Shown here piece by piece: positions 12,232 through 40,355 of a stretch of DNA of 64,000 nt (positions are counted from its first letter, which is position 1; each line of letters opens with the position of its first letter). The position numbers and the translations under genes are program-made. Below the pieces are notes generated by a model. That model was not told the DNA's origin. It saw nothing but the letters and a program-made list of their open reading frames with translations, and did no database searches. This DNA comes from a phage: the sequence record PZ171032.1. One strand, 5' to 3'.

Positions 12232-15200
12232 TTAACGAGAAAAGGTTGCGTAGGCTTCTAGACGATACTGCTGGTCACCAGGGAACATAACACCTATAGA
12301 GGCTGTCCCTAGAATCCTGCCTTCCTTTCCAGACTCCATTCTGAACCCTACCCATCCTGAACTCCTTGCAGCCTCGATGTTGTCGCTATACCCGAAAGTG
12401 GCAAGATCGTCAACACCAGCCCCAAACAGCAACTGAAGCTGACTTCTCGGAAGCCCTATAATTTCAGGAATATACGCACCAAAGTACACCATCTGCCCTA
12501 CCTTAGGACCGCTGCCGTACTCCATCGGTTTGCTTGTAGAGAAAGTCTTCATACCAGAAGTACCTGCCGGATTAGGGTATGCCCCGTTTGTTGCTGTACC
12601 TATCCACATTCTCCACTGTGGTGCCATCTGTTTGACAGTAAAAGATGTTGAAGACGTTTTGCGCCCTGCATCATCTGTAACTACAAACTTTATGGTGACA
12701 TTCCCAGTAGCTTTAAATGTTACCAGTCCTGTGGTGGCATCCACTGTTGCAATGTTGGTATTACTACTTTCCCAAGTCTTTCTAATCCCGGATACGTTGG
12801 AAGGGGTAATAGAAGGTTCCTGCATCTGCAGTTTACCGCCCACAATCCCTATGCCGTTGCCAGGATTATACAGTGCACCAACCTCGTCTATAATGTTCCC
12901 TGCTTTGAGACTATACTTCCTTGAGAAATTGTAGGTTCCGTTATAAGTGTGTGTCCCTGAGAAGGTGACATCTGCCTTCCCGTAAGAGATGCAAACCAAC
13001 GCATACTTCCTGTCAGGCAACGTTTCTCCAGTCTCTGGGTGAGTTTTACCTACCTGGAACACACTCGGGTCAGTAGAGTCGTGACTATCACTAACGGAGC
13101 TTGGACCGCCCATCAACTGTGACAAACAATTCCTTACCCATGTCCAGTTATTATCGCTGGAGAAGTCCACAGTCAAATCAAACACAACCCACTCATTTGG
13201 CTTCCACACAGGTGTTGTAATGGACTTGCCTACACCACCTCCTTGGAGTGTTGCCGACTGTTCAGTGATCAGGGCCGCATAGGCCAGAGTTCCTAAACTC
13301 AGAGTCTGGCTTGCTGTCCTCACTACCTTAGAATCAGCATCTGTGAAGTTGTTGATGATTTGGAATGTGCCATAAGTGTTTTTACAGGTAATTCTGGCGT
13401 TCAGTGTGTCAATCTTCCTCACATCTGCCATAGCAGTGTTAGACACAGAGAAGTCAGAAGCTTTAGCTGAGTTTGCCGCAACAGCAGGATCAACGTTAAG
13501 AGTTGCGTTGAACTGACAAGCAGGAGTAACCAGTAGCTTGTTATCACCTATTTGCTTCCATGAAACACTTTGAACAGGGAGATTCCATTTAATACCTGAG
13601 AAAACCTTAGCAACCCTTGGCCCCAAAGCTCCAGTCCTGTTGTCTTTACAGCACATAGACATGGTGATCGTTGACGGAGTGGCCTGACCAAATAATTGCT
13701 GTGCTTTTGCAGAGGACATAGTGTAGAAATTGTCCTTAACAAACTCATCAGCAGCTAAAGATCCATCAGCTCTCCACCACTGAACCTGATACCCTGTTTT
13801 GTCCCAACCACCGACCTGCTTCAAGTCCTCCCAGGAGATTTCCAGATCCCCGGTGGTAGGATTGATTGCAGCAGTTCCTGGTGTTCCAGATGACCATATT
13901 GGAATATCGAACCACGCTGGTTTAACCGACTGCACTGCGCTGGGACCTATTGCGGCAGCAAGTTGCTGGCCCATCAATACGCGAGCATCTTTCACCAGAC
14001 CCCACTCAATCATAGACCCAGAGTAACCTTCTTTCTTGTAGGCTGAGGATCCGTTCAAATGGATGAGTCGGCTTGTGCCAAAGTTATGTGCTCCACCACC
14101 GTTGTCGTCTGCAAAATTGGTTATGATTCTGTCCCTGATATTTTTCCATGCCCTGCCTCCAATCTCGTAGTCATGGTCATAACATCTTTGCAGTGTTGTC
14201 CAGCAAATGATCGCCATCCTTCTACCATTGCTGAAGCCAAAGGCCTGATCGTTAAGCTCTCTCCACAAGTAGCAGTTGGTGGTCCACATGGCCCTATGAA
14301 TGTTAAACCAGTTTATAGATTTGGCTGAGTTGTTCCACTGAGTCCCAGGTAATTCAGGCCATACTGCATTAACCAGCATGTCTTCTGTTCCTGCATCAAC
14401 CAGGAACCCTCTCACCTTCTTACCCATGCCTACCCTATCTTTTGCAATCCAACTGCCAAACAATCTCAGTTTTGGACCGTAGACAACATCTTCCGGATGC
14501 TCAAAAGAAATATATTTTAGGTATATTGTAGGGTCACCATAGGTGCCATCACAAACAGCTTTGTGCATGTTCTCACCAAGGTCTAGACGAAGTCCTGTTA
14601 CAACTCTAGACGTGTCGGTGAATTTGTCTGTTAAATCAAACTCATACCACCACCAACCTGCACCCAACAATACTTTCTTACAACGCTGTGCATCTGTATC
14701 AGATATTCTCTTATCGCCTGCAAAAGGTGAGTCAGCAAACTGATAGTGCAGAGCAACCTCAAAAGGATGTGTGGATGTCCCGTTTTCTGCAAGAACTTGT
14801 TTACCTATCAGGTCGCACTTAATGATCATCACAACACGTTTGTATCCGTTTGTTACCGGAATTTGCATGGACATGGATGTCCCATCCATGTTTGATCTCA
14901 GTGCAGTCATGATGATATAAGGGTCAACGGCATTGCCCAAAGTCTCAGGACCGGGGATTATCTTATACTTCTTGACCTGCCCCATGATGTAGTCACTTGC
15001 GTAAGTTGCCTCATTCAAGCAAGATCCTCCACCAGGTAACTCACCAGGTCCCCAGAAAAATGCGCCGTAACAGTTGTAGAACCACTTGTTAGGATCGTAT
15101 TTATTCTTGAAGGTCTGAACCTCGTTGGCCTGTTTTGTCAAGAAAACCTGCGTGTCTGTGAAGATTGCAGGGTTTACTCTCGCCTGTCTTGGAGGGTAAC

Positions 15201-17868
15201 CTGTAGTTTGGTTAAACCACAAATTACAAGAGTAATCCCTCATATAGTCATAATCAGAGTATTTGTTTACATCTTCGTTCCAACACATGTTTAGGTTGGT
15301 ACCGCCCATGCATACAATATATTCTGCGACATACTTATCACTTCTGGTAGGAATACCTATGAACCATCTGTTAACAGGCTCATCCCAAGCTGTGCGCTCA
15401 TCTTTAACGCAGATAGCAATCCAGTCATGTGTTCCTGTTTTCTTGCACACATCTCGCTTCATACCATAGTAGAACTCTTTAGTATTCGGCTCAGGTGCAT
15501 TTATCAGGTAACTCCATGCCTGATTTGCATAAGTTCCATTGGTGCGTGGATCATGATCAAAGGCATACATGATGATCCTTTCCCCACCAAGATGTTCGCC
15601 AAGAGTAACTTTGACATTCACATCGCCGTAACCATTGCGAACAACATCCATATTGTCAATAGAGATGCCTCTGGGAGTGTAGGCAATCTTCAGCGAGTTA
15701 TCCTCACTAGTGCCACCAAGTGTAATCCCTATGTTGTTTGTTGTCCCGTCGGCATATCTTACTGTGGCTTCCCAGCGTATTCCGAAATATCCTGCATCAT
15801 GGCTAACAATTTTCAGTGTACGAGCACCAGAGTTAGGTTTTCCAGGATCAGGCCAAGGATTTGGATGTTCATGGACAGTCAACGATGTCCCGTTTTGCTC
15901 GTTGACCTGCAACATTTTACCGCCTCTGCCGTTAGGGTTGAACTCCCACAAGGCTTGTGTTTTCACAATATTGTCATACGTGGTACGTCTCTGATCGTAG
16001 ATCTCCTGAGTCACATCGTAGGTTACAGACCCGGCATCCATTCTATGGAGTCGTACTATATACGATGTATCGCCTTCTACAGCAGGTTGAGCTGCGTTAA
16101 GCCCGAAGTATACAGTATCGTTGACATGGAACTGTTTGTTTCTACCGACAGTATGCCACTTGCCGTTGGACGGGTACGCTGGGACGATAGTGTTCCAGTT
16201 CAAAGTCCTTGTTGTGTGGGTTCTGCCTGTGCCATGTTTGTCATGATAGGTTATTTTTACAGAGTACAGTCCACGTCTGTTAACATTTCTGTTATATTGG
16301 GTAACAACAACTTCGTTGGCCCCGCCGTGGTTCCAGTTGGTGGAGAATTGGTAATTTGCATCTGTAACAACCGTGCCTGCAGCATTTACCAGTTCAATCT
16401 TGTCAATAATGAACGTAGCCCCCTCTGGCTGAGGCTTCAATTTCATCTTGACCGTGTCACCAATGTAAATATTGCTAACGCTGCTAACACCGTTAACTTC
16501 GAAAATATAATCAACACCCCAACTGTCTACTGGGACATTTTTATACCAATTCTCAGGAACCTCTGTGAACCCCTGGCTATTAAGTCTGCCGCCAAACAGG
16601 TTGTTAGATCCTGCAAAACTTCCCCTTGGGATGCCTGACCACCAAAGTTTACCATTAACAACAGTAAAGGTTCCTAAGAAACCTTCTCTGTGGATGCCTT
16701 GGAAATAAACACTCTCTGTCCAGCTAACTGGCAGGCGTTGCTCAACATATTTAGCTGTAGCAAGAGCTTGATAGTGGATAAAATTAGCCCTAGGGCTATT
16801 GTTTGCAGATTGTGCACCAATATCATTACACAAGTTGCGAGAGAATCCACGATACTGTTTAGTGCCATTATTGAAGAAAATGCCACTTGTGCCATATCCA
16901 CGAGCCATTATCACCTCATGGGTGTAGGTGATATTTAAGGAACGCCATGTGTCATCTCCCCAGACGTCTTGCCCGTAGAATACGTTAACAAGCTGCTGGT
17001 CATTGGGTTTGTGCATCCTCTGTGTGGCAATTATTGCCCCGTTAGGGCCACACATAAACCCTTTCCACTCCTCATCTGCAGGAATGCCCCTCAAATCGTT
17101 ACGAGTAATCTGCACAGGGGGCCAAACAAGGTCGTTTCTACTGTTATTTCTCAGAAAGTCGTATCCAGCAATCCAGAAACCCCTAGGACCACCGAAAATA
17201 ACAGAGTTGTCATGCACCTCACAGTTGATGCTTGGGTTTTTCCAAGGGCCTGTTTCAGGATTTTCCGATGTCTCACCAATCTTTACAGGGGTTGCATGCT
17301 GATTTTTATCTACATGCAAAGATCCGTAGGTGTTGTTACCAGATCCATACAGGTTAAGTATGCCAGTACCTTCTGCCTCTGCAATAACCCAGACAGTGTT
17401 GTTAATACCGCCCATCACCTCAATAAGGCGTTCTGGGTGGGTGTCAAGGTGCAATCCTTTAACAATCTGCTCTGGGAGTGGTGTCCACTCGTTTACGCAA
17501 ACATCATTACCGCCTGCCGCAGTGGATCCGATAAGACCTGCAGTGCAGCCGATGTAGAAAAACTGGTTATCAAAAGTCCGGATCACAAACGCGCGGTCTG
17601 CTCTCCACACATGATCAACATTCCAGGCTGTTTCGCTCGGATAGTTTATAGGGCTACGATCCCCAGTGCGGCACTCTCCGAACTTGTTATAGCCAGTAAT
17701 ATTAAGCTGACCATCATCAAAAAGTATAGCTAAGCTATTTACATAGGATACTGTGTTGCTTGTACCATCACTGTTGTCTATTGGGTATGACAGAACAGCA
17801 AGTTCCTTAATTCCACCCCTCTTATCGAGGAAATGACGACCAAGTTTTAGCAAAGGGATTGGAAGCAT
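12232..17868 (-). CDS. giant virion protein (1878 aa), putative tail fibre/tailspike with C-terminal Ig-like (Big_2-like) domain
   Basis: Uninterrupted 5.6-kb ORF at distal end of tail-fibre cluster; C-terminal segment ATVDATTGLVTFKATGNVTIKFVVTD resembles bacterial Ig-like group 2 domains; function not resolved. Confidence 0.55.
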   Translation of the reverse strand: MLPIPLLKLGRHFLDKRGGIKELAVLSYPIDNSDGTSNTVSYVNSLAILFDDGQLNITGYNKFGECRTGDRSPINYPSETAWNVDHVWRADRAFVIRTFDNQFFYIGCTAGLIGSTAAGGNDVCVNEWTPLPEQIVKGLHLDTHPERLIEVMGGINNTVWVIAEAEGTGILNLYGSGNNTYGSLHVDKNQHATPVKIGETSENPETGPWKNPSINCEVHDNSVIFGGPRGFWIAGYDFLRNNSRNDLVWPPVQITRNDLRGIPADEEWKGFMCGPNGAIIATQRMHKPNDQQLVNVFYGQDVWGDDTWRSLNITYTHEVIMARGYGTSGIFFNNGTKQYRGFSRNLCNDIGAQSANNSPRANFIHYQALATAKYVEQRLPVSWTESVYFQGIHREGFLGTFTVVNGKLWWSGIPRGSFAGSNNLFGGRLNSQGFTEVPENWYKNVPVDSWGVDYIFEVNGVSSVSNIYIGDTVKMKLKPQPEGATFIIDKIELVNAAGTVVTDANYQFSTNWNHGGANEVVVTQYNRNVNRRGLYSVKITYHDKHGTGRTHTTRTLNWNTIVPAYPSNGKWHTVGRNKQFHVNDTVYFGLNAAQPAVEGDTSYIVRLHRMDAGSVTYDVTQEIYDQRRTTYDNIVKTQALWEFNPNGRGGKMLQVNEQNGTSLTVHEHPNPWPDPGKPNSGARTLKIVSHDAGYFGIRWEATVRYADGTTNNIGITLGGTSEDNSLKIAYTPRGISIDNMDVVRNGYGDVNVKVTLGEHLGGERIIMYAFDHDPRTNGTYANQAWSYLINAPEPNTKEFYYGMKRDVCKKTGTHDWIAICVKDERTAWDEPVNRWFIGIPTRSDKYVAEYIVCMGGTNLNMCWNEDVNKYSDYDYMRDYSCNLWFNQTTGYPPRQARVNPAIFTDTQVFLTKQANEVQTFKNKYDPNKWFYNCYGAFFWGPGELPGGGSCLNEATYASDYIMGQVKKYKIIPGPETLGNAVDPYIIMTALRSNMDGTSMSMQIPVTNGYKRVVMIIKCDLIGKQVLAENGTSTHPFEVALHYQFADSPFAGDKRISDTDAQRCKKVLLGAGWWWYEFDLTDKFTDTSRVVTGLRLDLGENMHKAVCDGTYGDPTIYLKYISFEHPEDVVYGPKLRLFGSWIAKDRVGMGKKVRGFLVDAGTEDMLVNAVWPELPGTQWNNSAKSINWFNIHRAMWTTNCYLWRELNDQAFGFSNGRRMAIICWTTLQRCYDHDYEIGGRAWKNIRDRIITNFADDNGGGAHNFGTSRLIHLNGSSAYKKEGYSGSMIEWGLVKDARVLMGQQLAAAIGPSAVQSVKPAWFDIPIWSSGTPGTAAINPTTGDLEISWEDLKQVGGWDKTGYQVQWWRADGSLAADEFVKDNFYTMSSAKAQQLFGQATPSTITMSMCCKDNRTGALGPRVAKVFSGIKWNLPVQSVSWKQIGDNKLLVTPACQFNATLNVDPAVAANSAKASDFSVSNTAMADVRKIDTLNARITCKNTYGTFQIINNFTDADSKVVRTASQTLSLGTLAYAALITEQSATLQGGGVGKSITTPVWKPNEWVVFDLTVDFSSDNNWTWVRNCLSQLMGGPSSVSDSHDSTDPSVFQVGKTHPETGETLPDRKYALVCISYGKADVTFSGTHTYNGTYNFSRKYSLKAGNIIDEVGALYNPGNGIGIVGGKLQMQEPSITPSNVSGIRKTWESSNTNIATVDATTGLVTFKATGNVTIKFVVTDDAGRKTSSTSFTVKQMAPQWRMWIGTATNGAYPNPAGTSGMKTFSTSKPMEYGSGPKVGQMVYFGAYIPEIIGLPRSQLQLLFGAGVDDLATFGYSDNIEAARSSGWVGFRMESGKEGRILGTASIGVMFPGDQQYRLEAYATFSR

Positions 17869-17885
17869 TGTGTTCTCCAGATAAG

Positions 17886-17910
17886 AAAACCGCCCCGTCA
17901 GGAGCGGTTA
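17886..17910 (-). terminator. possible terminator hairpin (AACCGC...GCGGTT + U-rich)
   Basis: Hairpin then UUUUCUUAU on minus strand between genes 17917..19662 and 12232..17868. Confidence 0.35.
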
Positions 17911-17916: not shown

Positions 17917-19662
17917 TTAACGTTGTGCAATTACTACGTCTACAATATCACCAACACCACAATATGTTAATTGCAGCAGGGTAACACTGTTAGCCTTGTT
18001 GTTAATAACAGGTGTTGCCGACAGGATAGCATACTTATCGTGCAAAGTCACGTTGTGACCTACAGCATCCTGAATGACATAGATAACTGCAGTGAATGGA
18101 TAAGGTTTATCTTCCGCTGATGTCCCAGGCCACTGCCCTATTGTAAAATCCCCTTTAGCGTGGACAACATACATACTGGCCTGCCCGTTAGGTGTCCATG
18201 TCCCACTAGATGCGTCAACCTCCTCTAAGTCAAAGTCTACTTTTCCTGCATGGAAAGAAGGGGCGGTGATAGTTTTACCTGCCTCGATCTCTTGTGAGGT
18301 GGTTATCTTGCCACTAGAGTTGATACCATTACAGACAAAGTTAACATTAGAGAAATCTGGCAACCACCCTGTCACTGTGCCAGAAATCTCAAGGTTATGC
18401 AGGCGTGTTGTTCCTGTGCCGTTGTCATTTAAGCTAACATCACCATTTACCTGCAAGTTTCTGGTAACGTTGCAGTTTTCAGAGTTTGCAGTTGTTGCAG
18501 TTAAAGTGGTTGTTGTCAGCTCGGTAATTATGCCTTTGTTGGCTGTAAGACCTTCCCCTTCAAAAGTTGCACGCTCATTGACTCTCAGGGTATTCAGAGC
18601 TATGTTTTGGATAGAGGCTGTACCTCGAATAACTACAGACCCGCCAACCTCTAAATCGCCATTTACCAATGCATCGCCCGTGCTTTCAATGTAGCTAGGG
18701 TAGATCATGGTGCCATCGACAGAGTAGGTTATCCCTGTAACGGTGCCTGTCACCTCAAGGTTCTTAACCCTAGCGGTCCCATCGACCTGCAATGTCGGTT
18801 CGGTTGCTGCCTTCATGGCATTGCCACGAATGTACACGTAGTCAAAAAAGTTATTACCCAGACCATCAAAATGCACATCGTTATTATTAGCCACTGGTTT
18901 CCCAGAAGTTATAGTGTCAGCTATAATCCTGTGGGTGGACACTTCATGAGGTTGCAGCTCTGTGCTTCTCCAGTCTGCATGCTTAGGATCGCTCCACGCA
19001 AAAGTAAGTGTAGAAGTATTTGCCGTGAGGATCAGGTTCCTGAAGCGTGCATTGGAATCTGCTCCATTAACAGGCCCATGTAAGGTAAGTGTGCCCCCAA
19101 CTATGGTGTTGGCAAGTTCTGTAAGACCTTTTACCACCAAAGACCCTACAGTAACTTTCATCCCCTCCATGGCTTTAAATATACTATCTACATAGTCAAC
19201 AACAAACTCTGTGTTTGCTATAGACTCAGACTTATCGTCCATTGGAGGAGTAGGTACTCGCGGGTCACCTTCGAACCTTGGGCTGTTAAGTTTTGCGTAG
19301 TATTTTGCCATTACTGCAGAGTCGGTGTATAATCTCCAGTTTGGAGATTGTGAAGGATCTGCTGGCATTCTAACCGGGTTAGATTTTGATGCTGCGGGAG
19401 CGTACCACCACTGAGGGCCTGTGTCCCCTTTAAACTCATACAACTGGTTAAAAACTGTTGTGGATGCACCATACGCCCAAGGGATTGGTGGCGTTTTAAA
19501 ATAAAGGGTGTCAAGCATGGCTTTTCGTACCGTAGGGATAGTGGTCCCATCCTCTACGACAACTTCATCCACAGCGTTACCGTTGACAATCAAGTGCAAA
19601 CGTTCAGAATCAACAATTACTTGATCTACCGCCTGCTCGAAGCTTGTCATGTCTTGCGCCAT
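17917..19662 (-). CDS. tail fibre / tailspike-like protein
   Basis: 581 aa; Gly/Thr/Asn-rich beta-structure-like repeats; position in fibre cluster. Confidence 0.5.
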   Translation of the reverse strand: MAQDMTSFEQAVDQVIVDSERLHLIVNGNAVDEVVVEDGTTIPTVRKAMLDTLYFKTPPIPWAYGASTTVFNQLYEFKGDTGPQWWYAPAASKSNPVRMPADPSQSPNWRLYTDSAVMAKYYAKLNSPRFEGDPRVPTPPMDDKSESIANTEFVVDYVDSIFKAMEGMKVTVGSLVVKGLTELANTIVGGTLTLHGPVNGADSNARFRNLILTANTSTLTFAWSDPKHADWRSTELQPHEVSTHRIIADTITSGKPVANNNDVHFDGLGNNFFDYVYIRGNAMKAATEPTLQVDGTARVKNLEVTGTVTGITYSVDGTMIYPSYIESTGDALVNGDLEVGGSVVIRGTASIQNIALNTLRVNERATFEGEGLTANKGIITELTTTTLTATTANSENCNVTRNLQVNGDVSLNDNGTGTTRLHNLEISGTVTGWLPDFSNVNFVCNGINSSGKITTSQEIEAGKTITAPSFHAGKVDFDLEEVDASSGTWTPNGQASMYVVHAKGDFTIGQWPGTSAEDKPYPFTAVIYVIQDAVGHNVTLHDKYAILSATPVINNKANSVTLLQLTYCGVGDIVDVVIAQR

Positions 19663-19671: not shown

Positions 19672-19938
19672 TTAAGCTTTTTGCTCTTCGTTTTTAACGT
19701 GGTCAGGGTGCTGGCAACCCCACCGGAGCGAGATGAATTTGCTAATAAGCTGGGGGCAGGCTACTGAAGGTGCATATATCCACGCATACCATTCAGGAAG
19801 CGTATCATTATACCCCATATGAATAAACACCCCAGTCATCACCGCCATGCCTATGTTCGACCATAGCTTAGATTGGGATACTTTCGTAGGGTCATCAGAT
19901 GCCGCAACCAGTCCCCATAAAAACTGAGTTAGTTTCAT
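19672..19938 (-). CDS. small putative membrane protein (holin-like topology)
   Basis: 88 aa; hydrophobic segments NIGMAVMTGVFIHMG and WYAWIYAPSVA; charged C-terminus. Confidence 0.4.
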   Translation of the reverse strand: MKLTQFLWGLVAASDDPTKVSQSKLWSNIGMAVMTGVFIHMGYNDTLPEWYAWIYAPSVACPQLISKFISLRWGCQHPDHVKNEEQKA

Positions 19939-19949: not shown

Positions 19950-20996
19950 TTAAGCATAAGATATAGTGATCCATTGACCGTTTACAAGTTTTTGGATAGC
20001 ACCTGTCCAGTAATCACCTTGATAAGGGTGTTTATAAGCGTAGTTACCAGAGCACATCACATGTCCAGGGTAGACTCTTGACTCTCTGTAGGTGGTTTTG
20101 AAACGGTTCGCTATCCTTACATCGTCAACCCCTCTACTGGGCATAGGGACAGTAAGGTTACCACTACCGTCTGCGCTGTTACCGTTTACCCTGCGGACCA
20201 CGTTTCTTCCACCAACGGTTGCATATTGGCCTCTAACGGTTTCATCGTTACAATCAACTCTTCCACCTATTTGAGCGCTTCCGCAGGATTGTTGTCCGTT
20301 AACAGTGGCTCTTGGTATCGTGACCGCATTGGCATTTGCAGAGGAACTTTTTGCATCGTTGCATTCAAGATTTCCTTGGATAGCCAGTCTTGCACGGTTG
20401 GCAGTTATAGCATTGAGCTTCATAGCCGAAAACACAGTCTGCCCACCAGAAGGTTGAAATCTCCAACGGAACCCGTCTATTTGGTGAGAAGGATCATCAA
20501 GGTCTGTGCCGTCAGCACCACCGATGTTGTCCATAATCCAGAAGTCCATCGTCGTCTTGTCTGGAGTTATGGTGGTATATATTGCCGCATTGTCTGTTGA
20601 CGCAGATGCAAACTCGATTCTTTGAAGGCCTAAAGTTTGAGTCTGAGTCATTATGTCTCCAGACTTGTCAACATACAGATCGTCCATTTCTTCAGGCGAG
20701 TATACATTGAGAACTTGACGTGCAGCAGCTTTGTCTGGAACGTCTGCTAGATTATTAGTGACCCTTAAGAATCTATTATCCCATCCTGGGACAACATCTT
20801 CTGTTAAATGCTTTAACCACGCAGAAAGCATGTGAAGTTCAAAGTTAACAACTTCACATGCCACTCTTTGTGTCATATCCCAACCTTTCAATCTCTCTTC
20901 TTTTTTTGGTTGAGACTTATTCAACTCTCCCGTATTTTCAAGCACAACATCCTGATTGGCCCAAATATCAAGAGGGATAACTGGTTTAGTCATCAC
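19950..20996 (-). CDS. tail fibre protein (Stf-like), paralog 2
   Basis: 348 aa; N-terminus PLDIWANQDVVLENT and C-terminus LVNGQWITISYA near-identical to those of gene 22008..23048; centre diverged. Confidence 0.6.
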   Translation of the reverse strand: MMTKPVIPLDIWANQDVVLENTGELNKSQPKKEERLKGWDMTQRVACEVVNFELHMLSAWLKHLTEDVVPGWDNRFLRVTNNLADVPDKAAARQVLNVYSPEEMDDLYVDKSGDIMTQTQTLGLQRIEFASASTDNAAIYTTITPDKTTMDFWIMDNIGGADGTDLDDPSHQIDGFRWRFQPSGGQTVFSAMKLNAITANRARLAIQGNLECNDAKSSSANANAVTIPRATVNGQQSCGSAQIGGRVDCNDETVRGQYATVGGRNVVRRVNGNSADGSGNLTVPMPSRGVDDVRIANRFKTTYRESRVYPGHVMCSGNYAYKHPYQGDYWTGAIQKLVNGQWITISYA

Positions 20997-27390: not shown

Positions 27391-27417
27391 ATAAAAATAA
27401 ACCCCGCCGAAGCGGGG
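27391..27417 (-). terminator. rho-independent terminator (CCCCGC-CGAA-GCGGGG + U-run)
   Basis: Same hairpin sequence as at 968-983; UUUAUUUUUAU follows on minus strand directly downstream of the J-like gene stop. Confidence 0.6.
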
Positions 27418-27426
27418 CTTTAAAGG

Positions 27427-32009: not shown

Positions 32010-32563
32010 ATGATCGGGCGGCTCGCCACCTGATCCACATATTTAAAAAATCTGTCATTATCGTTTCTTGAGCTGTGGCTTTCCTCCGTGTACCGATAAG
32101 GAAAACCTCTTAACCAGCTGTTGAAGATGGAAGAGATGGATATGGACAAAGCACTATTCTCACCTGTCTGAATAGCCATATCTGTTATAAGTCCGTCAAA
32201 CAAGCCATTAGTTGTAACAGGTAGACCATTCTCCATAGCGGTAATGTACAACGTGGCACGACAACCAGAATACTCCGTCTTCAGCAGATCACCCACATAC
32301 TTAGGATCAAACCCGTTTAATGTTGCTACCACAGATCCGAAGTTGGTGGCATCTTTCTCAGACACAGCAGTTAATGTTGCTGATCCCCCTATCCCTATAA
32401 AATGTTGCCCCTCAATTACTACAACACCAGTGCCTGAGCACACTCTGACAGTTCCTGTCGGTAGCTCCAGCTTTGCAGCAATTAAGATCTCAACACCATC
32501 AAGCTCCAGCTTTTCAAGAAATAAATTATCTAATGGCGCTCTGATCATCTTAGAAATCCTCAA
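31997..32563 (-). CDS. minor tail protein (tail tip complex, putative)
   Basis: 188 aa; overlaps neighbours by a few codons, consistent with coupled tail-tip operon. Confidence 0.4.
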   Translation of the reverse strand: MRISKMIRAPLDNLFLEKLELDGVEILIAAKLELPTGTVRVCSGTGVVVIEGQHFIGIGGSATLTAVSEKDATNFGSVVATLNGFDPKYVGDLLKTEYSGCRATLYITAMENGLPVTTNGLFDGLITDMAIQTGENSALSISISSIFNSWLRGFPYRYTEESHSSRNDNDRFFKYVDQVASRPIIWEV

Positions 32564-33140
32564 AGAAGTTGATAACTATATTATCACCTTTTTGCATAGC
32601 ATCGACTTTTTGCTTAATTTTATAAATATCTCTGATATGAAACCTACCCTTCGGGGATTGAGTTATTATCTTCATAGTGTCCCCTGCGGCAATAGGTTTT
32701 CTAAGTCTTGGAGATATGCTTATAACAGCAGACCCAACACCATCGCTACGCACTGGAGCTGTTACCACTTTCAATTCATCATTGACAGATATTTTATCCC
32801 CAGCTCTGGCTATGTCTCTGTTTGGCTCCCACCCAACCGTCTTCAAAAAATCGTCGTTACCAGTAGGCCCAAGGGCGATTGGCTCATTAGCTGTTACCGA
32901 GTGACCGTAAGTTTTAATAAGAAAGATGTTCCCATCTTTATACACCTGATCAACAAAGCTCTTAAGCTCTAGCAACTGTGACTCGCTGATATTGGAAACC
33001 GTCAAAGTGCCTTTCCAGTTGGGTGTGGCATAGGTTACTTTTTGCGTTTTACCTGTAAACGGACTTTTAAACGTAACAATATCTGCCAGCAGCTCCAATC
33101 TAATATCTGGAAGGTATCTAGGCCTTTCCCATAAAAACAT
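32550..33140 (-). CDS. minor tail protein (lambda L-like position, putative)
   Basis: 196 aa; third gene upstream of J-like gene. Confidence 0.4.
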   Translation of the reverse strand: MFLWERPRYLPDIRLELLADIVTFKSPFTGKTQKVTYATPNWKGTLTVSNISESQLLELKSFVDQVYKDGNIFLIKTYGHSVTANEPIALGPTGNDDFLKTVGWEPNRDIARAGDKISVNDELKVVTAPVRSDGVGSAVISISPRLRKPIAAGDTMKIITQSPKGRFHIRDIYKIKQKVDAMQKGDNIVINFFEDF

Positions 33141-33212: not shown

Positions 33213-33232
33213 GCCCCCGCCGAAGCGAGGGC
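33213..33232 (-). terminator. terminator hairpin (GCCCCCGC-CGAA-GCGAGGGC, one mismatch) + U-run
   Basis: Third copy of the CGAA-loop GC hairpin, directly downstream of 1270-aa fibre gene stop. Confidence 0.5.
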
Positions 33233-33239: not shown

Positions 33240-36200
33240 TTACTTCAGTTTCTCTTGCAACCCAGCAACAACCTCTGTCAATTTTTTAACCTGCTCCTCA
33301 AGGGCAGTTATTTTATCGTCCTGTTCCCTGCAAACCTGGACAAGCAAGCCTGTTACAGCTGCGTAATCCACGCTGTAGAATCTTTCCTCTGTTATTAAAG
33401 GAGTTCCATCCTGATCAGGGTTTGGGATTTCCTTGCTTTGCACGAAAGAGCTAACTGCTTCCGGCAGCGCTTCAAGCACTTCTTGTGCTATAACACCTGC
33501 ATAAGGCATACCATTCTCTTTTAAAGTGTAGGTATAGCCCTTCATCTTCCTGATAGCTTCTAACGCGTTAGGAATAACCTCTATGTTATCCTTCAGGTCG
33601 CGGTCAGAGTTTTGGTTCACAGATACACAGTTCACTGCACCGTTTACAGAAAGGTATCTTGATTTATCTGGCAAGGTACCACAATGCCATACCCAATTTG
33701 ATTGAGAATCGTCAAGAACCTTAAACTCCAACACGTTTGGACGATTTCCTGTACTGCCGTTGCCCCAATAGTGCATATGAGCGCTATTCGCAGGCATGTT
33801 GCCACCGTTATTAGTAACATGGCTTCCAGAAATATATACCTTTAACTCTGAGGTCGGTATTTCCCCTTCGGGAGTTGTTCCTCCATATCTGAAGCTAACA
33901 CCATTGCCACCTGTTTGGGTCCACGGGCCCCAAGTGAAGGTTTGTCTCACCATATTACCATAACGTATAAATCTATCGCCGTGATAGGTAATATACTCTT
34001 GAACACACCCATTACCGTTATTGGCGTTATTCTGCAACACAATAAGTGTTCCAGCTTCATTTACCGGATAATGACGATCATATGTTGCATCATTATTTGC
34101 CGATTGATGGTAAATGCCTTCCCACAACCCATTATAGGTGTCAAGGTCTGAGGTACCGAGACCCTGACCCCTGTGCTGCATAGCTTTATTCCAGGGGTGG
34201 TGATTACCGCCTTCTATAGACCTGGTGTATAAGTTACTTTGTCTGCCAGCAATCTGGAAAGCGTAGTTTCCCGAGAATCCTACAGATAAACCTCCTACAA
34301 CCATGGTGTCTTGTGGACCGTTAACATTACCAGCCATTATTTTTGACGGGTTATTAGGCCCGAACTGGTTGTTCCAGTCTCCACCAGTATGACATACAAA
34401 ACCACCTGGGGCTGAAAAAGTACCATCCTTATTGAAGTTGTAGAATCTATGAGCTGTGCCCACAACATCTCGAACAATAACTTGACCAGCCTCTGGAGTA
34501 GACCTGAACTCTGCTTGACCTTTAAGGCCAGCACCATTACCGCATTTAGAGGTAAACGTGCCGTTAGTTAGATCCTCTGTTCCATCTGATGCACACTGGA
34601 ATCCTGCGTTAGAGAATAGCGCCTTTCTAGGACCACTGTAGCACAAATAGTCAAAACCGTCAGCCCATAGCTCTACTTTAGGCATGTTCATTTTGCTCAT
34701 TATCGCATAGCGTTCAGCAGTGCCTATATAGTGCCACTGTGTGCCGCCGCCAGTGTAGAACCCTGAAGTCCCTTTGAAGTCAACAATAGGTCTAGTGTTG
34801 GTATTGTTATCTCCAAGAACAGCCAGATTTAAATCTGCTGACTGGAGAGGTGCAACGAACTTAACACCGTCCTGATTGTTTGTTACAGAGCCGACTTGAT
34901 AATCTTGCTCTCTGGTAAACACTTCGACAACATTTCTACTTGCGTATATGCTGACAGGGAAAGCACGAGCCTCTGCATAGAAAGCAACATACTCTTGTTT
35001 ACCCCTTGTTGGAGCAACCATCCCAAGAAGTGCTTTTTCATTTTGATAGAAATTCACTACCCCGTAGAAAGAGTCCCCTCTATCTGTCCAACCACCAGTT
35101 CTATAGTGACACTGTAAGGTGGCGCAGTTCATAGGGTCACCGCCGGATGACGATCTGGTGACTAGGGTAATATCAGTGCCAGTTGCTGGAGCATAATACG
35201 GATCTGTTCTAACGATGATTGGGTAGTATTTCCCATCTTCCATCCCTGCAGTTCTTGGCAGTGTTAAGAAATCTTTGACACCCGCAGCTATAGGAACTTT
35301 GAACAGATTCTGAGCATCTGCCAGGGTTGTAGCCCCTGTACCACCTGCTGCATGAGGTAAAGGTTCCCACTTAGCCTTCCGGTTGTTATAAACACCCCAC
35401 TCCAGACTTCCGTTACCGGATTCGTCCATCCCACCATCCCAGATAACCATCTTGGCGGCTTTCTTGGACCCCCAGAAGCCTCTTTCTGCTCCTGAACTAC
35501 GGATCCACTCTCCAAGTCCCCAGTTTGTCAGCTGACCAGTAAGATCCCCAACCTGCATGTATTTAGGGCAGTCTAATACACCGTCTTCGCGGAAACCTAG
35601 ATATCTATGAGTTTCAGATCCTTTTGCACCTTTGTGCAGGTGGATTGTCAACCAAGCTTTATTGTCGTTTCTTACCTCAGAGTAGATCCTATATCCATGC
35701 TCAAGGACACCGTCAGCGCTATATTTGTCCCCGTTAACAATACCGGATGCTGACTTAACATCAGCAGAACTTTGAGACAGGTAAAGGTGCCCGAAGGTAG
35801 GGGAGTTTCTAGACCCGAGACCGATGTGCGATCTAAAGGTATCATCGTTACGAGGTCTGACCATCGGCTGCCATGAAGTCCACTGGTTTGTGTTGGCCTG
35901 ATAGGTTCTCAAATACCAAACATCTACGTTAGAGAATGGATAGTATTCCTGACGACAGCCTGTACCGCCGTTAGCATTGTTCTGCCAAACAATCAAGTGA
36001 CCAGCACCAGAACCTGCAGGGTAACCATTTGCCTCGGTTGCATAAGCAGTCATCGGCTGATAGTATACACCATCCTGATTACCAGTCAAGTTATTGATAT
36101 TGAAATTTGGCTCAAGGGCTGCACGTTGCTTATAGAAAGCCCCTAAGTTAATGCGTGCACCTGCGGCATCTCTGGCCCCAGTACCGCCTTGCTCTATAGC

Positions 36201-37052
36201 AAGAGGTTGCCACGAAGCTGTTTGTTGGTTCCACATGCCCCAACGGCCTGTTGCATCAAGCTGCAAGTACCCTGCTGTGTTTAAATCATCTCCAGCACGG
36301 ATAACTGTTCTTGTTGGGTTGTTTGCCTCTAGGCGTTTAAATTCATCACGAAGTGCTATTCTTTTTGTTGTTGCTACACCGTTGGTTACTGCAATGGTAT
36401 ACATGGCTCCGGTGGTAGCGCCACGGAAAATACCATCAACAGTTGTAGTATCACGACGAGATACCACACCATTCAGAAATTTTTCACCAGCTGCTACAGA
36501 AGGGTAGTTGGTAGTTCTTCCCTCTTCAATAACTGCAGGACCAACAAAGTTATCAAGGTGAATAACATCACCTACAGTGTGCACTGTACCAAAATCTACA
36601 CGCTGTGCAAGTGCTTTAGCATCGTTAGCTGTCTGAACAGTAACATCCATTACATCCTGGACAGACTGCCCTTCGGCTGTCATAATCATAGATGCACCAA
36701 TGGTAGATTCCAGCTCCTCCCTTAGGGACGGGTCAGTATATACCATCCATGCAGCGTCAGTAATCCCACCATCTGAGTACGGTGAAGACAATGCAGGAAC
36801 AGTGTGTGGAAATTCGCCTTTCCAACGCAGGTAGAGGTCTTCCTCTTCGAAGTAGGCAAAATCCATTGGGCCGTTTAACTTACCACCTTCCTTAAAGGAG
36901 ATTACATGAGAAACAGTCCCATCAACATGGACAACATCGCCAATTTTTACACGACGGGTCAGGTCTGGTTGTTGAACAACCAGGTAATCATCCTCTGTCA
37001 CTGCGGTAGTGGCAGGAAGAGATTCAATTCTGACAACTTTAATATCAGCCAT
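33240..37052 (-). CDS. long tail fibre protein (1270 aa)
   Basis: N-terminal ~100 aa homologous to N-terminus of gene 39687..40355 (DDYLVVQQPDLTRRVKIGDVV vs DDFLVVNQTDGTRKAKIDDVV); Gly/Asn/Thr/Tyr-rich; C-terminal coiled-coil KITALEEQVKKLTEVVAGLQEKLK. Confidence 0.6.
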   Translation of the reverse strand: MADIKVVRIESLPATTAVTEDDYLVVQQPDLTRRVKIGDVVHVDGTVSHVISFKEGGKLNGPMDFAYFEEEDLYLRWKGEFPHTVPALSSPYSDGGITDAAWMVYTDPSLREELESTIGASMIMTAEGQSVQDVMDVTVQTANDAKALAQRVDFGTVHTVGDVIHLDNFVGPAVIEEGRTTNYPSVAAGEKFLNGVVSRRDTTTVDGIFRGATTGAMYTIAVTNGVATTKRIALRDEFKRLEANNPTRTVIRAGDDLNTAGYLQLDATGRWGMWNQQTASWQPLAIEQGGTGARDAAGARINLGAFYKQRAALEPNFNINNLTGNQDGVYYQPMTAYATEANGYPAGSGAGHLIVWQNNANGGTGCRQEYYPFSNVDVWYLRTYQANTNQWTSWQPMVRPRNDDTFRSHIGLGSRNSPTFGHLYLSQSSADVKSASGIVNGDKYSADGVLEHGYRIYSEVRNDNKAWLTIHLHKGAKGSETHRYLGFREDGVLDCPKYMQVGDLTGQLTNWGLGEWIRSSGAERGFWGSKKAAKMVIWDGGMDESGNGSLEWGVYNNRKAKWEPLPHAAGGTGATTLADAQNLFKVPIAAGVKDFLTLPRTAGMEDGKYYPIIVRTDPYYAPATGTDITLVTRSSSGGDPMNCATLQCHYRTGGWTDRGDSFYGVVNFYQNEKALLGMVAPTRGKQEYVAFYAEARAFPVSIYASRNVVEVFTREQDYQVGSVTNNQDGVKFVAPLQSADLNLAVLGDNNTNTRPIVDFKGTSGFYTGGGTQWHYIGTAERYAIMSKMNMPKVELWADGFDYLCYSGPRKALFSNAGFQCASDGTEDLTNGTFTSKCGNGAGLKGQAEFRSTPEAGQVIVRDVVGTAHRFYNFNKDGTFSAPGGFVCHTGGDWNNQFGPNNPSKIMAGNVNGPQDTMVVGGLSVGFSGNYAFQIAGRQSNLYTRSIEGGNHHPWNKAMQHRGQGLGTSDLDTYNGLWEGIYHQSANNDATYDRHYPVNEAGTLIVLQNNANNGNGCVQEYITYHGDRFIRYGNMVRQTFTWGPWTQTGGNGVSFRYGGTTPEGEIPTSELKVYISGSHVTNNGGNMPANSAHMHYWGNGSTGNRPNVLEFKVLDDSQSNWVWHCGTLPDKSRYLSVNGAVNCVSVNQNSDRDLKDNIEVIPNALEAIRKMKGYTYTLKENGMPYAGVIAQEVLEALPEAVSSFVQSKEIPNPDQDGTPLITEERFYSVDYAAVTGLLVQVCREQDDKITALEEQVKKLTEVVAGLQEKLK

Positions 37053-37087
37053 TCTTTCTCCTGAAAGGGGGCAAACAGCCCCCTATG

Positions 37088-39685
37088 TTAAAGGTACAAT
37101 CCACGGTATTGAGCATAGAGGCCCAGACCGCGAAGGATTTCGCCAGAGTGATAGCCTACCGGATCAGAAACTGCCCAGCAGCCGTTTAAAACATTATCCC
37201 CATTAATGAAGTGGTGCTTTTGCAGTAGCTTCACACAGGCTTCTACAACAATGTCTATTTGAGGTATTGTCTCTGAATACCCGCACAGACCTAGCCAGCA
37301 GCAACCTGCAAGCCATTCACCTACCACCCACATCCTGTCTCCTCTGTCTTGATAAGAATATCCCCCAGAGGTGTTAAAGTCTGTAGGCAGATTTCCTGAA
37401 TGAGATGACTGGAATCTGTTGAGGAACCATGCCCATTTCTGGCAGAACAGGAATAGTCTTTCATCAACAGGTTCTTTATGTTTCTTGAGCTCATATATTG
37501 TGCGGCACGCAGCAACAAAAGATCTTGACTGGAGCTTAGAGTTATCTACCATCTCCCACCAACCAGCCAACCCTTCATTACCTCTTTGCCATACATAACG
37601 TGAGGCAACTGGACCCTCTGTCTTAAATGTATTGTTATACCAGACTTGAGCGTCATACAGAAAGCCTATTGTATTTGACAATCTATGGCGATCTATGTTT
37701 TCTGCACCCATGCAGTAGACTGCTGGGTATTGCATGCCAGGATAGGGCCAATTTGGCCTTTCCTCTAAAAGATAGTTTTCCTTATCTATTACCTTTCCGG
37801 CAGGGAACACACCTGGTGTGTGCCTGTATGCACCTTGCTTGTAGTTTCTGACATAGCAATCGCCAACCTTAGCGGTTGATTCTGTCTTGCTTGCCATCCA
37901 CACGCTAAACCAGATTAGATAAGCATCTCTATCTGCAATATAGAATTGCGGCAGCGTGTTGACGCAATACAGATCAAACAAGCCATTACCTATCTGCCTG
38001 TCGCTTAGGCTGAAATCTACAGAGGTGAGCCCCTTAGGATTAGCAAAGAAAGGTTTAATCTCTTCTTCGGTGTGATGAGGTTGTGTCGGATCTAGTTTGA
38101 AATCTCCTAGAGTAAGAGTTTCTGTTATCCATTGTCCATTAGTGGCATATAGATCAGCATACCATAACCACCTGTCTTTGTCAAGAAATTTGACCCTTAC
38201 CATCTCATCATCTGATCGATAAGTTACTGAGTTTAAAGAAATCTCTCTCCCAAAATTGAAAGTTACTTTACCTCTTGCTATATTACAACGGGTGAAGTTG
38301 TCAGAGTGGTTGTAAATGTCTGTATCATACTGCATACTAACACTAGCGCCACCGCTTACGGCAATGTTTTCCTCTTTAGGTAAGAGATACGGATTACCGT
38401 CTTTACCAACTACCTCTACGAAATCAGTAACCTTGGCAACTATTTCTGTTACCTCTGCCCCTCCAAAAGGAACCCCTATCCTGTACTGTTTTTTGTTATT
38501 GTTGCCATCATTAAGGATGAAATGTGGCTGGAACAGAACCCCTTCTCCTCCGAAATTCATAACAATTTCAGCATCTCTGCCTATTTTGTATGTAGTCCCT
38601 TTTTGAATTATTTCGCAAGGCTGGCGTGCGTTCATTCTAAAATTGATATACCCGTCACTGTCCCTGCTCATGACAGGAACTGTTCCTGCAACAAGACAAG
38701 CACCATCTGTAAACGGTGCCTTAACCAACGTGGTCTTTCTAAACAGTTTGTCGTAGGCGTTTATGTCACTGAAATTAAGCAACTTGTTGTAAGACTGTTT
38801 AAACGCGGTGTAATACTTTTCCTCACCTGTCAAGGTGTAGAGTTGATAACAAGCGTCACACCACATTTCTTCCCCGTCCAACTCTGGGGCCTGATTATCT
38901 GCAACCACGTTTATAGGATTTACAATTACAGGGGATCCTGCAGGTATCACCGATCCACCCTGCTCTTGAGGTAATCTCACACAATAGGTTACCTTGTGGC
39001 TGCCTGTAACACCCTTATCTTGTAATTGGATTGTGCCGAACTCTACAGACGTATGACCACTATCGGCTATGCTACCGTTAGCCCAATAGCGGTTACCATC
39101 CCATGCTATATACCACTCAACCCACCAACTTAATCCGGATGTTGTCCAATCCGGGTTAGCATCTGTGCCGCCGTAAACATCAGAGTCTACAGTGTTTCTT
39201 CCTAACACACCGTTATACGCTTGGAATGCCTTGTCCAGGTATTCCCCCCATGTCGGAGATCCAGCTGGGATTTTTCCTCTACCATTGGTAAAAGACACCA
39301 CCACATCTTTAAACCCACCATGTGATGGAACCCCATCTGTGGATAGAGGGTAGTGGGACAATCTTTGCATTTTACTTTCTACTGCATATGCACCCAGAAG
39401 ATGGCTATTGTAAGCTTCCCAAGCATCTTTTGCCCTATCCAAGTAGAAATCGCTTTTCGATGCCCTGTATGCTTCAATGTACCCCAGAATCAACACAGCT
39501 TGGGACTCATGCATTGCCCAATCATTATTTATCTTATTACCTGACCACCCTGCAGCTATAAGACCATCAGGGTTTACTAGCTTATTTTGTGTAGGGGTGT
39601 TGGTAATACCTGTGTTGTTATCGAGGCACTTCCTGTGCCCCTCAATCATCTGAAATACGTTATCAATGTTGTGTTGAATACGCAT
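37088..39685 (-). CDS. tail-associated protein, possible glycoside hydrolase/depolymerase-like
   Basis: 865 aa; Trp/Tyr/Asp-rich; segment ILGYIEAYRASKSDFYLDRAKDAWEAY reminiscent of alpha/alpha-toroid glycosidases (weak, from memory). Confidence 0.35.
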   Translation of the reverse strand: MRIQHNIDNVFQMIEGHRKCLDNNTGITNTPTQNKLVNPDGLIAAGWSGNKINNDWAMHESQAVLILGYIEAYRASKSDFYLDRAKDAWEAYNSHLLGAYAVESKMQRLSHYPLSTDGVPSHGGFKDVVVSFTNGRGKIPAGSPTWGEYLDKAFQAYNGVLGRNTVDSDVYGGTDANPDWTTSGLSWWVEWYIAWDGNRYWANGSIADSGHTSVEFGTIQLQDKGVTGSHKVTYCVRLPQEQGGSVIPAGSPVIVNPINVVADNQAPELDGEEMWCDACYQLYTLTGEEKYYTAFKQSYNKLLNFSDINAYDKLFRKTTLVKAPFTDGACLVAGTVPVMSRDSDGYINFRMNARQPCEIIQKGTTYKIGRDAEIVMNFGGEGVLFQPHFILNDGNNNKKQYRIGVPFGGAEVTEIVAKVTDFVEVVGKDGNPYLLPKEENIAVSGGASVSMQYDTDIYNHSDNFTRCNIARGKVTFNFGREISLNSVTYRSDDEMVRVKFLDKDRWLWYADLYATNGQWITETLTLGDFKLDPTQPHHTEEEIKPFFANPKGLTSVDFSLSDRQIGNGLFDLYCVNTLPQFYIADRDAYLIWFSVWMASKTESTAKVGDCYVRNYKQGAYRHTPGVFPAGKVIDKENYLLEERPNWPYPGMQYPAVYCMGAENIDRHRLSNTIGFLYDAQVWYNNTFKTEGPVASRYVWQRGNEGLAGWWEMVDNSKLQSRSFVAACRTIYELKKHKEPVDERLFLFCQKWAWFLNRFQSSHSGNLPTDFNTSGGYSYQDRGDRMWVVGEWLAGCCWLGLCGYSETIPQIDIVVEACVKLLQKHHFINGDNVLNGCWAVSDPVGYHSGEILRGLGLYAQYRGLYL

Positions 39686-39686
39686 C

Positions 39687-40355
39687 TTAGATAGCTCCTG
39701 CGATAATCAGTGCCCCGTACCAAGTTAACCCGTTGTCGTAGGTTTCCAACTTGAAAATATCTGTTGCACCAGCTGTAAATGTTAGGATAGGATCTCTTCC
39801 GTAGGACCATTTAACATTACCAGGCCAATAGACTTTGTTGCCGCCAGAGGTCTGAGTAATGCATACGGTTATAGTTCTCGCCACTCCTTCAAGACCTTCT
39901 GTTTGATTTTCAAAAGAGATTGTGGTATTTGAAGTTAGTCGAACCTTAAAGGTATCCGCAACTTCAAGATCCATATCAAGCTGACCACCGATAGATCCGT
40001 AATCAACTATTCTGCCAGAAGAAGTTGCAGCAAGCTCACCAAAAACAGACCAGGCATTTGCAGACACACCCCCAGCACCCTCTACAGTGGAGTCTGGGAG
40101 GATTATTTTAGGATAATCCCCGTTCCACGTGTAGTAGCGCTTAGTTTCTGGGTCATAAGCAAAGTCCTTCTTGCTCTTAAGATAACCACCCTCTGTGAAA
40201 TAGACTATCTTAGTAATGCTAAGATCGTTGACAACATCGTCAATCTTAGCCTTTCTTGTCCCATCAGTCTGGTTGACAACCAAGAAGTCATCACTCAGGA
40301 CTGTTTCTGCATCTTCAAGATCTGGAATTGGTATTGTAGGATAAGCTACAGCCAT
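39687..40355 (-). CDS. tail fibre N-terminal anchor module protein (222 aa)
   Basis: Shares N-terminal module with 1270-aa fibre; coupled to downstream 865-aa gene. Confidence 0.45.
   Translation of the reverse strand: MAVAYPTIPIPDLEDAETVLSDDFLVVNQTDGTRKAKIDDVVNDLSITKIVYFTEGGYLKSKKDFAYDPETKRYYTWNGDYPKIILPDSTVEGAGGVSANAWSVFGELAATSSGRIVDYGSIGGQLDMDLEVADTFKVRLTSNTTISFENQTEGLEGVARTITVCITQTSGGNKVYWPGNVKWSYGRDPILTFTAGATDIFKLETYDNGLTWYGALIIAGAI

Follow-up and report, generated by a model that had tools for sequence, protein, structure and literature searches.

The closest described relatives of the locus treated here are found in the rV5-like phages, that is rV5 (V5) with its genes gp27-gp43, ECML-10, LL12 and the BASEL phages Bas48-59, which have the same genes in the same order, mostly at 90-99% DNA identity. 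When rV5 was described in 2013, two paralogous short tail fibres (Stf) with 42.3% identity were recognized, together with a gp43 N-terminus that resembles the P22 tailspike, an endosialidase-chaperone end of gp41, and a large gp37 (PMC3606486). The BASEL study of 2021 reported three sets of lateral fibres along with the two Stf paralogs and found most of the locus to be highly conserved between genomes, with three large fibre genes that vary allelically and short-fibre paralogs that hardly vary (PMC8594841). The phage sequence PZ171032.1, of which a stretch of 64,000 nucleotides was analysed (the window, in the following), carries at positions 12232-40355 a locus that gene order and sequence identity mark as the late operon for baseplate and tail fibres of a Vequintavirus, i.e. 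of an rV5-like myophage. Very probably, this operon builds a multivalent adsorption apparatus on the Vequintavirus baseplate wedge. An initial annotation of the window had seen in it an unusually large receptor-binding arsenal; the observation is largely real and the interpretation mostly right, and both describe a textbook, already known feature of rV5-like phages.

Another system with the same baseplate core as the phage of the window is phi92 (Justusliebigvirus), the 'nanosized Swiss army knife'. Its gp141 is homologous to the 865-aa protein of the window, gp142 to the 690-aa protein, gp147 to the short fibre, gp140 to the C-terminal domain of the 222-aa protein, and gp150 to the N-terminus of the 581-aa protein. 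For the 865-aa protein (gp42 in rV5), the 690-aa protein (gp34) and the short-fibre proteins of rV5-like phages, the equivalence with phi92 proteins has been reported before (PMC7229145). The phi92 baseplate has three fibres per wedge, one of which branches from another, fibre II being attached to the base of fibre I in the structure of 2026 (PMC13450770). The phi92-like locus examined here (L009) differs from the window by its single Stf and by an N4-like protein that is encoded before the wedge genes and not after them, and the endosialidase of phi92 is absent in the phage of the window.

The operon and its relatives

With positions 12232-37052 as megablast query against a collection of 50,697 phage records, 133 records match, and in 61 of them a single place spans 80% or more of the query, the DNA identity being 90-99% for nearly all. 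The top match is Escherichia phage ECML-10 with 100% coverage and 96.2% DNA identity (96% over 24.8 kb), and with a best DNA match of 96% the source phage of PZ171032.1 is, as far as its DNA tells, a distinct isolate. The gene order is the same as in rV5 gp27-gp48, and the annotated maps of RudolfGeigy (BASEL Bas52), rV5 and LL12 are all collinear with the window; subtracting about 1265 from an rV5 coordinate gives the coordinate in the window, and 12232-40355 corresponds to the rV5 genes gp27 to gp43. Identities per gene were tabulated for the window against RudolfGeigy and rV5, and LL12 was compared gene by gene. The operon proteins are 96-100% identical to those of rV5, 20 of the 23 even 98-100%, and conservation against rV5 and RudolfGeigy is lowest for the J-like, 1878-aa, 1270-aa and 581-aa proteins, whereas most others reach 99-100%. 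Apart from this collinearity and identity with rV5, the operon also shares with the family several lateral-fibre genes, two Stf paralogs, and one tail-fibre assembly protein (Tfa). It differs from the rV5 group in a J-like protein that is 102 aa longer than that of rV5, due to extra coiled-coil repeats, and in the tip of the 1270-aa fibre, which is one of several alleles.

As had been annotated initially, eight open reading frames (ORFs) of 865, 1270, 1381, 690, 346, 348, 581 and 1878 aa and another one of 222 aa are present, all on the minus strand, and together they occupy about 22 of the 28.1 kb:

39687..40355, minus strand: 222-aa protein (rV5 gp43); the N-terminal ~105 aa are a Tail_spike_N anchor, the C-terminal ~110 aa a small domain
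37088..39685, minus strand: 865-aa protein (rV5 gp42), modelled with a globular glycosidase-like fold
33240..37052, minus strand: 1270-aa long fibre (rV5 gp41), N-terminal Tail_spike_N PF18668, also PF13884
27427..31572, minus strand: lambda-J-like protein, 1381 aa (rV5 gp37), Pfam PF09327 (134 bits) and PF24489 (106 bits)
23061..25133, minus strand: 690-aa protein (rV5 gp34), Calx-beta PF03160, PF23845 and PF23844
22008..23048, minus strand: short tail fibre 1, 346 aa (rV5 gp33), PHROG 4465
19950..20996, minus strand: short tail fibre 2 (rV5 gp30), 348 aa from a GTG, or 347 aa from the next ATG as in the rV5 annotation
17917..19662, minus strand: 581-aa lateral fibre (rV5 gp28), N-terminal 325 aa phiTE-like, followed by a beta-helix-like shaft
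12232..17868, minus strand: 1878-aa protein (rV5 gp27) with one Big_2 domain (aa 1682-1733, Pfam PF02368)

All eight large proteins had been called fibre- or spike-like. This description suits five of them (the 1270-, 1381-, 346-, 348- and 581-aa proteins), but not the 865-aa and 690-aa proteins, for which enzyme-like globular folds are predicted, and the 1878-aa protein was placed in neither class.

The operon lies downstream of the genes for tape measure (44157-46493), tube initiator, hub and spike at 40365-46493. Strong terminator-like hairpins follow the tape-measure gene and each of the long fibre genes (1270 aa, J-like, 581 aa and 1878 aa) and divide the operon into modules. These hairpins and the two baseplate genes within the operon are:

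44129-44146, minus strand: terminator-like hairpin in the intergenic gap just after the tape-measure gene
33213..33232, minus strand: terminator-like hairpin after the 1270-aa gene, 8 pairs, 7 of them GC, with a T tail
27399..27420, minus strand: terminator-like hairpin after the J-like gene, 9 pairs, 6 GC
25831..27321, minus strand: baseplate wedge protein, 496 aa (Baseplate_J; rV5 gp36), Pfam PF04865, PHROG 6
25133..25819, minus strand: baseplate protein, 228 aa (rV5 gp35), PHROG 4056 'baseplate protein'
17888..17909, minus strand: terminator-like hairpin between the 581-aa and 1878-aa genes, 9 pairs, 6 GC
12195..12216, minus strand: terminator-like hairpin that ends the operon, 9 pairs, 6 GC; rV5 has an annotated terminator at the equivalent place

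Docking modules, enzyme-like proteins and the number of fibres

An all-against-all BLASTP of the 23 operon proteins gave matches only for the pair of the 222-aa and 1270-aa proteins and for the pair of short fibres. The N-terminal module that had been noticed in the former pair is thus confirmed, with 38% identity over 99 aa (E = 3e-18), and in both proteins it belongs to the Pfam family Tail_spike_N (PF18668), with 41 bits against a cut-off of 25. Its matches in the PDB are the N-terminal parts of the tailspikes 3 and 4 (TSP3, TSP4) of phage CBA120 and also other solved tail proteins. The branched tailspikes of CBA120 (TSP1-4) and G7C (gp63.1/gp66) have this same 'TSP1/Gp66 N-terminal domain', and, as in these phages, the docking module is common to two virion proteins in the phage of the window; physical branching has been seen, at low resolution, only in phi92. 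Behind the anchor module, the 1270-aa fibre continues as a long shaft, which is conserved, and then as a C-terminal tip, which is exchangeable and contains an intramolecular chaperone of the Peptidase_S74 type (PF13884, aa 1149-1200). The 222-aa protein is 100% identical to rV5 gp43, and its C-terminal domain is common to the phi92-like 'sialidase domain protein' or Phi92_gp140, with 42% identity between aa 109-222 and proteins of Justusliebigvirus. The 222-aa protein lacks a detectable beta-helix tailspike body, and, used as a query, it matches two places in Vequintavirus genomes.

Two further types of docking are known from the solved baseplate of the Pectobacterium phage phiTE (Certrevirus, Vequintavirinae; PDB 9CUY/9MJN), in which the short-fibre N-termini dock on wedge 1 and residues 14-171 of the long fibre bind wedge 2A and the sheath initiator (PMC11972413). 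Homologs of these fibre N-termini are present in the Stf pair and in the 581-aa protein, whose N-terminal 325 aa correspond to the baseplate-bound part of the long fibre. Residues 8-325 of the latter match the phiTE long tail fibre (PDB 9cuy_g) with E = 1.8e-77, and the phiTE short tail fibre is matched by aa 1-108 of the 346-aa fibre (E = 1e-19) and by the N-terminus of the 348-aa fibre (E = 2e-08). The phiTE system differs in that there are only a short, a long and a third putative fibre, in that phiTE is flagellotropic, and in that the distal parts are unrelated.

The 690-aa protein begins with a Calx-beta domain, which is followed by the N-terminal domain and the TIM barrel of the N4 non-contractile sheath proteins (NCTSP), with 269.8 bits for PF23845 and 48.3 bits for PF23844 (cut-off 27 for both) and a match to N4 gp64 in the PDB (E = 2e-24). 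On these sequence matches, it is a homolog of the N4 non-contractile sheath with an enzyme-like globular fold. The NCTSP N-terminal domain and the TIM barrel are thus common to this protein and to N4 gp64/gp65, and N4 and the vequintaviruses both depend on the N4 glycan receptor (NGR); unlike the N4 sheath, which surrounds a short tail, the 690-aa protein belongs to the periphery of a myovirus baseplate and has the extra Calx-beta domain. The rV5-like phage LL12 requires the outer-core glucose I of the lipopolysaccharide (PMC7229145), and according to later work the glycan receptor is NGR, with the N4-like protein acting as the corresponding receptor-binding protein (RBP), the 690-aa homolog being named as such by homology and genetic screens (bioRxiv 10.64898/2026.04.02.716166). 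The 865-aa protein was modelled as a split (alpha/alpha)6 barrel with beta-sandwich inserts, which has the six-hairpin barrel fold; its sequence identity to solved (alpha/alpha)6 enzymes is only 9-13%. According to this model, the protein is globular and (alpha/alpha)6 glycosidase-like and is not a fibre, and an enzyme activity is only predicted. Homologs of the 1878-aa protein with 45-58% identity cover its first 76%, and the C-terminal quarter with the Big_2 domain is variable.

From the literature and these homologies, a division of labour can be proposed. The 690-aa protein would bind the conserved NGR glycan as primary receptor and thereby let the phage past the O-antigen, the enzyme-like proteins may bind or cut other surface glycans, and adaptation to variable host surfaces may come from those long fibres whose tips are exchangeable (1270 aa, J-like and 1878 aa).

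A finding by virion proteomics that most of these proteins are non-structural had been named as the result that would speak against a receptor-binding arsenal, and rV5 virions gave no such result. The mass spectrometry (MS) table of rV5 (Table S5) comprises 19 proteins, among which, in the parts considered here, are gp34 (4 peptides, 10.3% coverage), gp41 (8 peptides, 8.1%), gp37 (4 peptides, 4.2%) and gp27 (3 weak peptides, 3.1%), and the text of the paper also lists gp30, 32, 33, 42, 43, 36 and 45 as detected (PMC3606486).

Several points weigh against a multivalent apparatus of this size. The parts of Table S5 considered have no protein rows with the lengths of gp28, gp30, gp42 or gp43 (PMC3606486), and as these parts back only gp34, gp41, gp37 and gp27 from the region, the last two weakly, the direct evidence in them is thinner than the text of the paper suggests. 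The BASEL study calls the assignment of genes to fibres 'far from clear' (PMC8594841), and no baseplate structure was found for a Vequintavirus sensu stricto that would assign gene products to fibres. The 1878-aa protein is without assigned fold or anchor (an AlphaFold2 model of aa 1-1200 with 15 homologs had a pLDDT of 45), and a terminator-like hairpin sets its gene apart from the rest of the operon. Also, a siphovirus-type Dit/J complex, as is encoded in the operon (see below), would have to fit on a baseplate already equipped with a hub and a spike.

An alternative, whose probability falls just short of even, is that independent receptor binding is limited to a minority of the eight proteins. 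The apparatus would then consist of three composite lateral fibres and the short fibres, with the cassette proteins and those of 222, 865 and 1878 aa as adaptors, shaft segments, enzymes or accessory structural parts, and counting ORFs would overstate the arsenal. This agrees with the three sets of lateral fibres and the high conservation of most of the locus in the BASEL genomes (PMC8594841), with the three fibre densities per wedge in phi92 (PMC13450770), with the little that the 222-aa protein has beyond its anchor module and a ~110-aa domain, with the globular 865-aa protein, and with the effectively monovalent behaviour of the BASEL phages on E. coli K-12 (PMC8594841). However, enzyme-like folds such as the glycoside hydrolase-like barrel and the N4 sheath-like TIM barrel are typical of glycan-binding RBPs, several of the proteins have baseplate-docking N-termini of their own, and independent binding specificities are not something that can be counted from sequence alone.

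The siphovirus-type tail-tip cassette

At 27427-33140, inside the myovirus baseplate operon, there is a siphovirus-type cassette of four genes that encode a Dit-like, a 188-aa, a DUF6950 and the J-like protein. The J-like gene has been listed above, and the first three genes are:

32550..33140, minus strand: Dit-like protein, 196 aa (rV5 gp40), first gene of the cassette, PHROG 1302 'distal tail protein' (E = 2e-50)
31997..32563, minus strand: tail protein, 188 aa (rV5 gp39), second gene of the cassette, PHROG 2048
31572..32009, minus strand: DUF6950 protein, 145 aa (rV5 gp38), third gene of the cassette, Pfam PF22262 (115 bits)

The tip complex of siphoviruses (gpM/gpL/gpK/gpJ in lambda, the closest one being that of Seuratvirus, Queuovirinae) is likewise encoded by four genes in the same order, with Phage_Tail_Tip and Ig_J domains. 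In the siphovirus VogelGryff (Seuratvirus), the tape-measure gene is followed by four genes that agree with the cassette in order and nearly in size, with 196, 188 and 145 aa plus J in the window versus 194, 194 and 144 aa plus J in VogelGryff. The identities are 29% for the Dit-like protein, 38% for the 188-aa protein, 45% for the 145-aa protein, and 53% over 694 aa for the J-like protein, the latter match including the hub-forming N-terminal part. In VogelGryff, the counterpart of the 188-aa protein, for which no solved relative was found in a sequence search, is the second gene after the tape measure, and that of the 145-aa protein is a 'putative minor tail protein'.

The J-like protein has a hub-forming N-terminal part, immunoglobulin/fibronectin type III domains, a coiled-coil stalk and a Phage_Tail_Tip domain. 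Its two Pfam domains are well above their cut-offs (134 bits versus 22 for PF09327, 106 bits versus 27 for PF24489), and lambda gpJ is matched in the PDB with E = 2e-28. NCBIfam, which named no other operon protein, gave 147.6 bits with NF049904 (lambda_TipJ), far from the cut-off of 1950, and on these scores the protein is a relative, not an equivalog, of the lambda tip attachment protein J. The stalk consists of coiled-coil repeats of about 44 aa (132 nt; repeat family D1, DNA positions 28621-29283), of which four are detectable in the DNA and about six readable in the protein sequence. Tandem Repeats Finder reported no repeats in 12000-41000, the copies of the J stalk being too diverged in DNA. 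It is mainly this stalk region in which J-like proteins differ in length, with 1381 aa here, 1279 aa in rV5 and 1199 aa in LL12.

Unlike the siphovirus tip complex, the cassette belongs to a phage with a contractile tail, as known from rV5 morphology, that also encodes a myovirus hub and spike, and its J stalk is lengthened by repeats. It does not directly follow the tape-measure gene but lies 11 kb away from it, with the hub, spike, sheath-initiator and three fibre genes in between. A similarity to the siphovirus PY54 is already pointed to in the GenBank notes on rV5, and no publication on this cassette architecture in a myovirus came up in one full-text literature search. When the phage collection was searched by tblastn with the Dit-like protein, 119 records had at least 90% identity, all of them Vequintavirus, none had 60-90%, and every listed match below 60% was in a genome of 42-83 kb. 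For the N-terminal part of the J-like protein, 117 records had at least 80%, none had 60-80%, and the listed matches below 60% were in genomes of 30-90 kb. Among the records examined, the cassette is thus confined to Vequintavirus, small (30-90 kb) genomes aside, and the one phi92-like locus examined (L009) has no cassette, no 1270-aa fibre and no second short fibre.

A possible but still doubtful explanation is that Vequintavirus sensu stricto captured a complete tail-tip cassette (Dit-like, proteins in the gpL and gpK positions, and J) from a Queuovirinae-like phage, that this is now mounted as a self-contained lateral appendage on the contractile-tail baseplate, and that its reach is set by how many ~44-aa repeats the J stalk contains. 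If true, two tail architectures would work together as a hybrid in a single virion, and the cassette may encode one of the three sets of lateral fibres, which lack assigned genes.

Clearly less probable than such an appendage is that the cassette is a passenger, which would have been acquired horizontally and would be expressed with little or no role in the virion or in infection. Its occurrence only in Vequintavirus among the records examined, with siphoviruses as next relatives, could be taken that way, and so could the two similar terminator-like hairpins that bracket it (33213..33232 and 27399..27420, alike in sequence as the 28-nt direct repeat D6, 79% identical). The MS evidence for gp37 in the parts of the rV5 table considered is thin, with two of the 4 peptides being non-tryptic, gp38-gp40 are unnamed in the text of the rV5 paper, and the table in these parts gives only gp34, gp41, gp37 and gp27 from the region. 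On the other hand, the four ORFs are all intact, the widespread conservation of the Dit-like protein (at least 90% in 119 records) and of the J-like N-terminal part (at least 80% in 117) speaks against a passenger, the J-like gene varies by allele and repeat number as expected under host-driven selection, and virions of rV5 did yield gp37 peptides.

Exchangeable tips, short fibres and host range

The LL12 allele of the 1270-aa fibre (L003 34200-38971) is 92% identical to that of the window up to about aa 1047 and then has a different tip, the last ~220 aa with the intramolecular chaperone being replaced by a tip of 432 aa and an extra ORF of 110 aa. A Seuratvirus siphovirus has a lateral fibre (L008 12341-14467) whose distal part shares 43% identity with this LL12 tip. 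The tip of the window is found with at least 80% identity in about 49 phage records and has relatives with 47-55% identity in T5-like and T1-like phages. The LL12 tip and the distribution of tips across T5-like, T1-like and Seuratvirus phages therefore indicate, at the level of sequence, that it is the distal tips that are exchanged, also across phage families, and that the N-terminal anchors stay fixed. Modular exchange as such had thus been noticed correctly, but its location is at the distal tips and not in the centre of the short fibres, as had been believed. That the 1270-aa fibre arrived together with the siphovirus cassette was considered and rejected, since this fibre and the lateral fibre of Seuratvirus are not similar.

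The 346-aa and 348-aa short fibres are paralogs with 43% identity over the full length (E = 9e-95). Near-identical termini around different central domains had been described for them, which is not what the alignment gives, since windows of 30 aa have 27-67% identity throughout and there is no swapped central block. A near-identity is limited to the last 12 residues (LVNGQWITVNYA / LVNGQWITISYA), and this likeness corresponds to a stretch of 63 nt that is 83% identical in the DNA. Between and behind the short-fibre genes, there are three small genes:

21409..21993, minus strand: tail-fibre assembly protein, 194 aa (rV5 gp32), Pfam Caudo_TAP (45.8 bits)
21083..21397, minus strand: 104-aa protein (rV5 gp31), PHROG 5345, unknown function
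19672..19938, minus strand: membrane protein, 88 aa (rV5 gp29), PHROG 1322 'membrane protein'

The Caudo_TAP domain is found only in the protein of 21409-21993, no Tfa paralog came up in the BLASTP of the 23 proteins, and neither the 88-aa nor the 104-aa protein matches Tfa in BLASTP and family scans, so that only the Stf is paralogous and duplicated Stf/Tfa units, as had been proposed, are not present. As the last 12 residues of both Stf paralogs are nearly the same, the single Tfa probably serves both of them.

In the 104-aa protein, visual inspection of the sequence suggests a coiled coil behind a hydrophobic N-terminal segment, and gp31 is listed as 'membrane protein, 1 TMD' in Table S3 of the rV5 paper (PMC3606486). 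Two genes of putative membrane proteins (88 and 104 aa) hence interleave with the short-fibre genes in a structural operon.

The multi-RBP, partly branched apparatus with a broad lysis host range that had been suggested initially matches the literature on this phage group, but a 'switchable' host range does not. Switching of the type of the invertible G segment of Mu, the C segment of P1 or a diversity-generating retroelement, with alternative fibres or Stf paralogs in different progeny, is extremely improbable and refuted at the sequence level, for although the two Stf paralogs lie near a chaperone of the Mu-U/lambda-Tfa type and the Stf C-terminus resembles Mu fibre protein S (8e-07 with the 346-aa fibre), the Stf paralogs and the other listed fibre genes all lie on one strand and have starts of their own, inverted repeats in 12000-41000 are at most 23 nt long, there is no match to a recombinase or reverse-transcriptase family among 20 scanned proteins, and both Stf paralogs are kept at 98-99% in relatives. 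All proteins of the apparatus would be made together, and it would be multivalency, not switching, that broadens the host range.

Two observations stand apart from these subjects. There are 18 GenBank records (MG0656xx) of 'Campylobacter phages' with the host Campylobacter jejuni that match the operon region, those listed being 94-96% identical to it and the two inspected being marked UNVERIFIED; these records look like mislabelled or contaminating coliphages. Outside the operon, at 60612-61553, the window has a minus-strand cluster of tRNAs (Pro, Met, Thr, Ser, Arg) that includes a 99-nt call at 60857-60955 with the four-base anticodon 'atcc' (ARAGORN; Rfam tRNA 35.5 bits), and one tRNA at 61264-61348 is found by Rfam alone.

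The multi-fibre locus accounts for the broad lysis host range of the rV5-like phages, which is established, and these phages are often used in the typing of E. coli O157 and in therapeutic cocktails. What the window adds is a narrowing of the question which gene belongs to which fibre: two types of docking can be tied to the solved phiTE baseplate, the 865-aa 'fibre' is, by its model, a globular glycosidase-like enzyme, the exchangeable parts are distal tips that are traded with T5-like, T1-like and Seuratvirus siphoviruses, and a siphovirus tip cassette lies within the operon. The picture of the family is unchanged by these points, which could guide host-range engineering, and new biology could still lie in the siphovirus tip cassette and in the 1878-aa protein.

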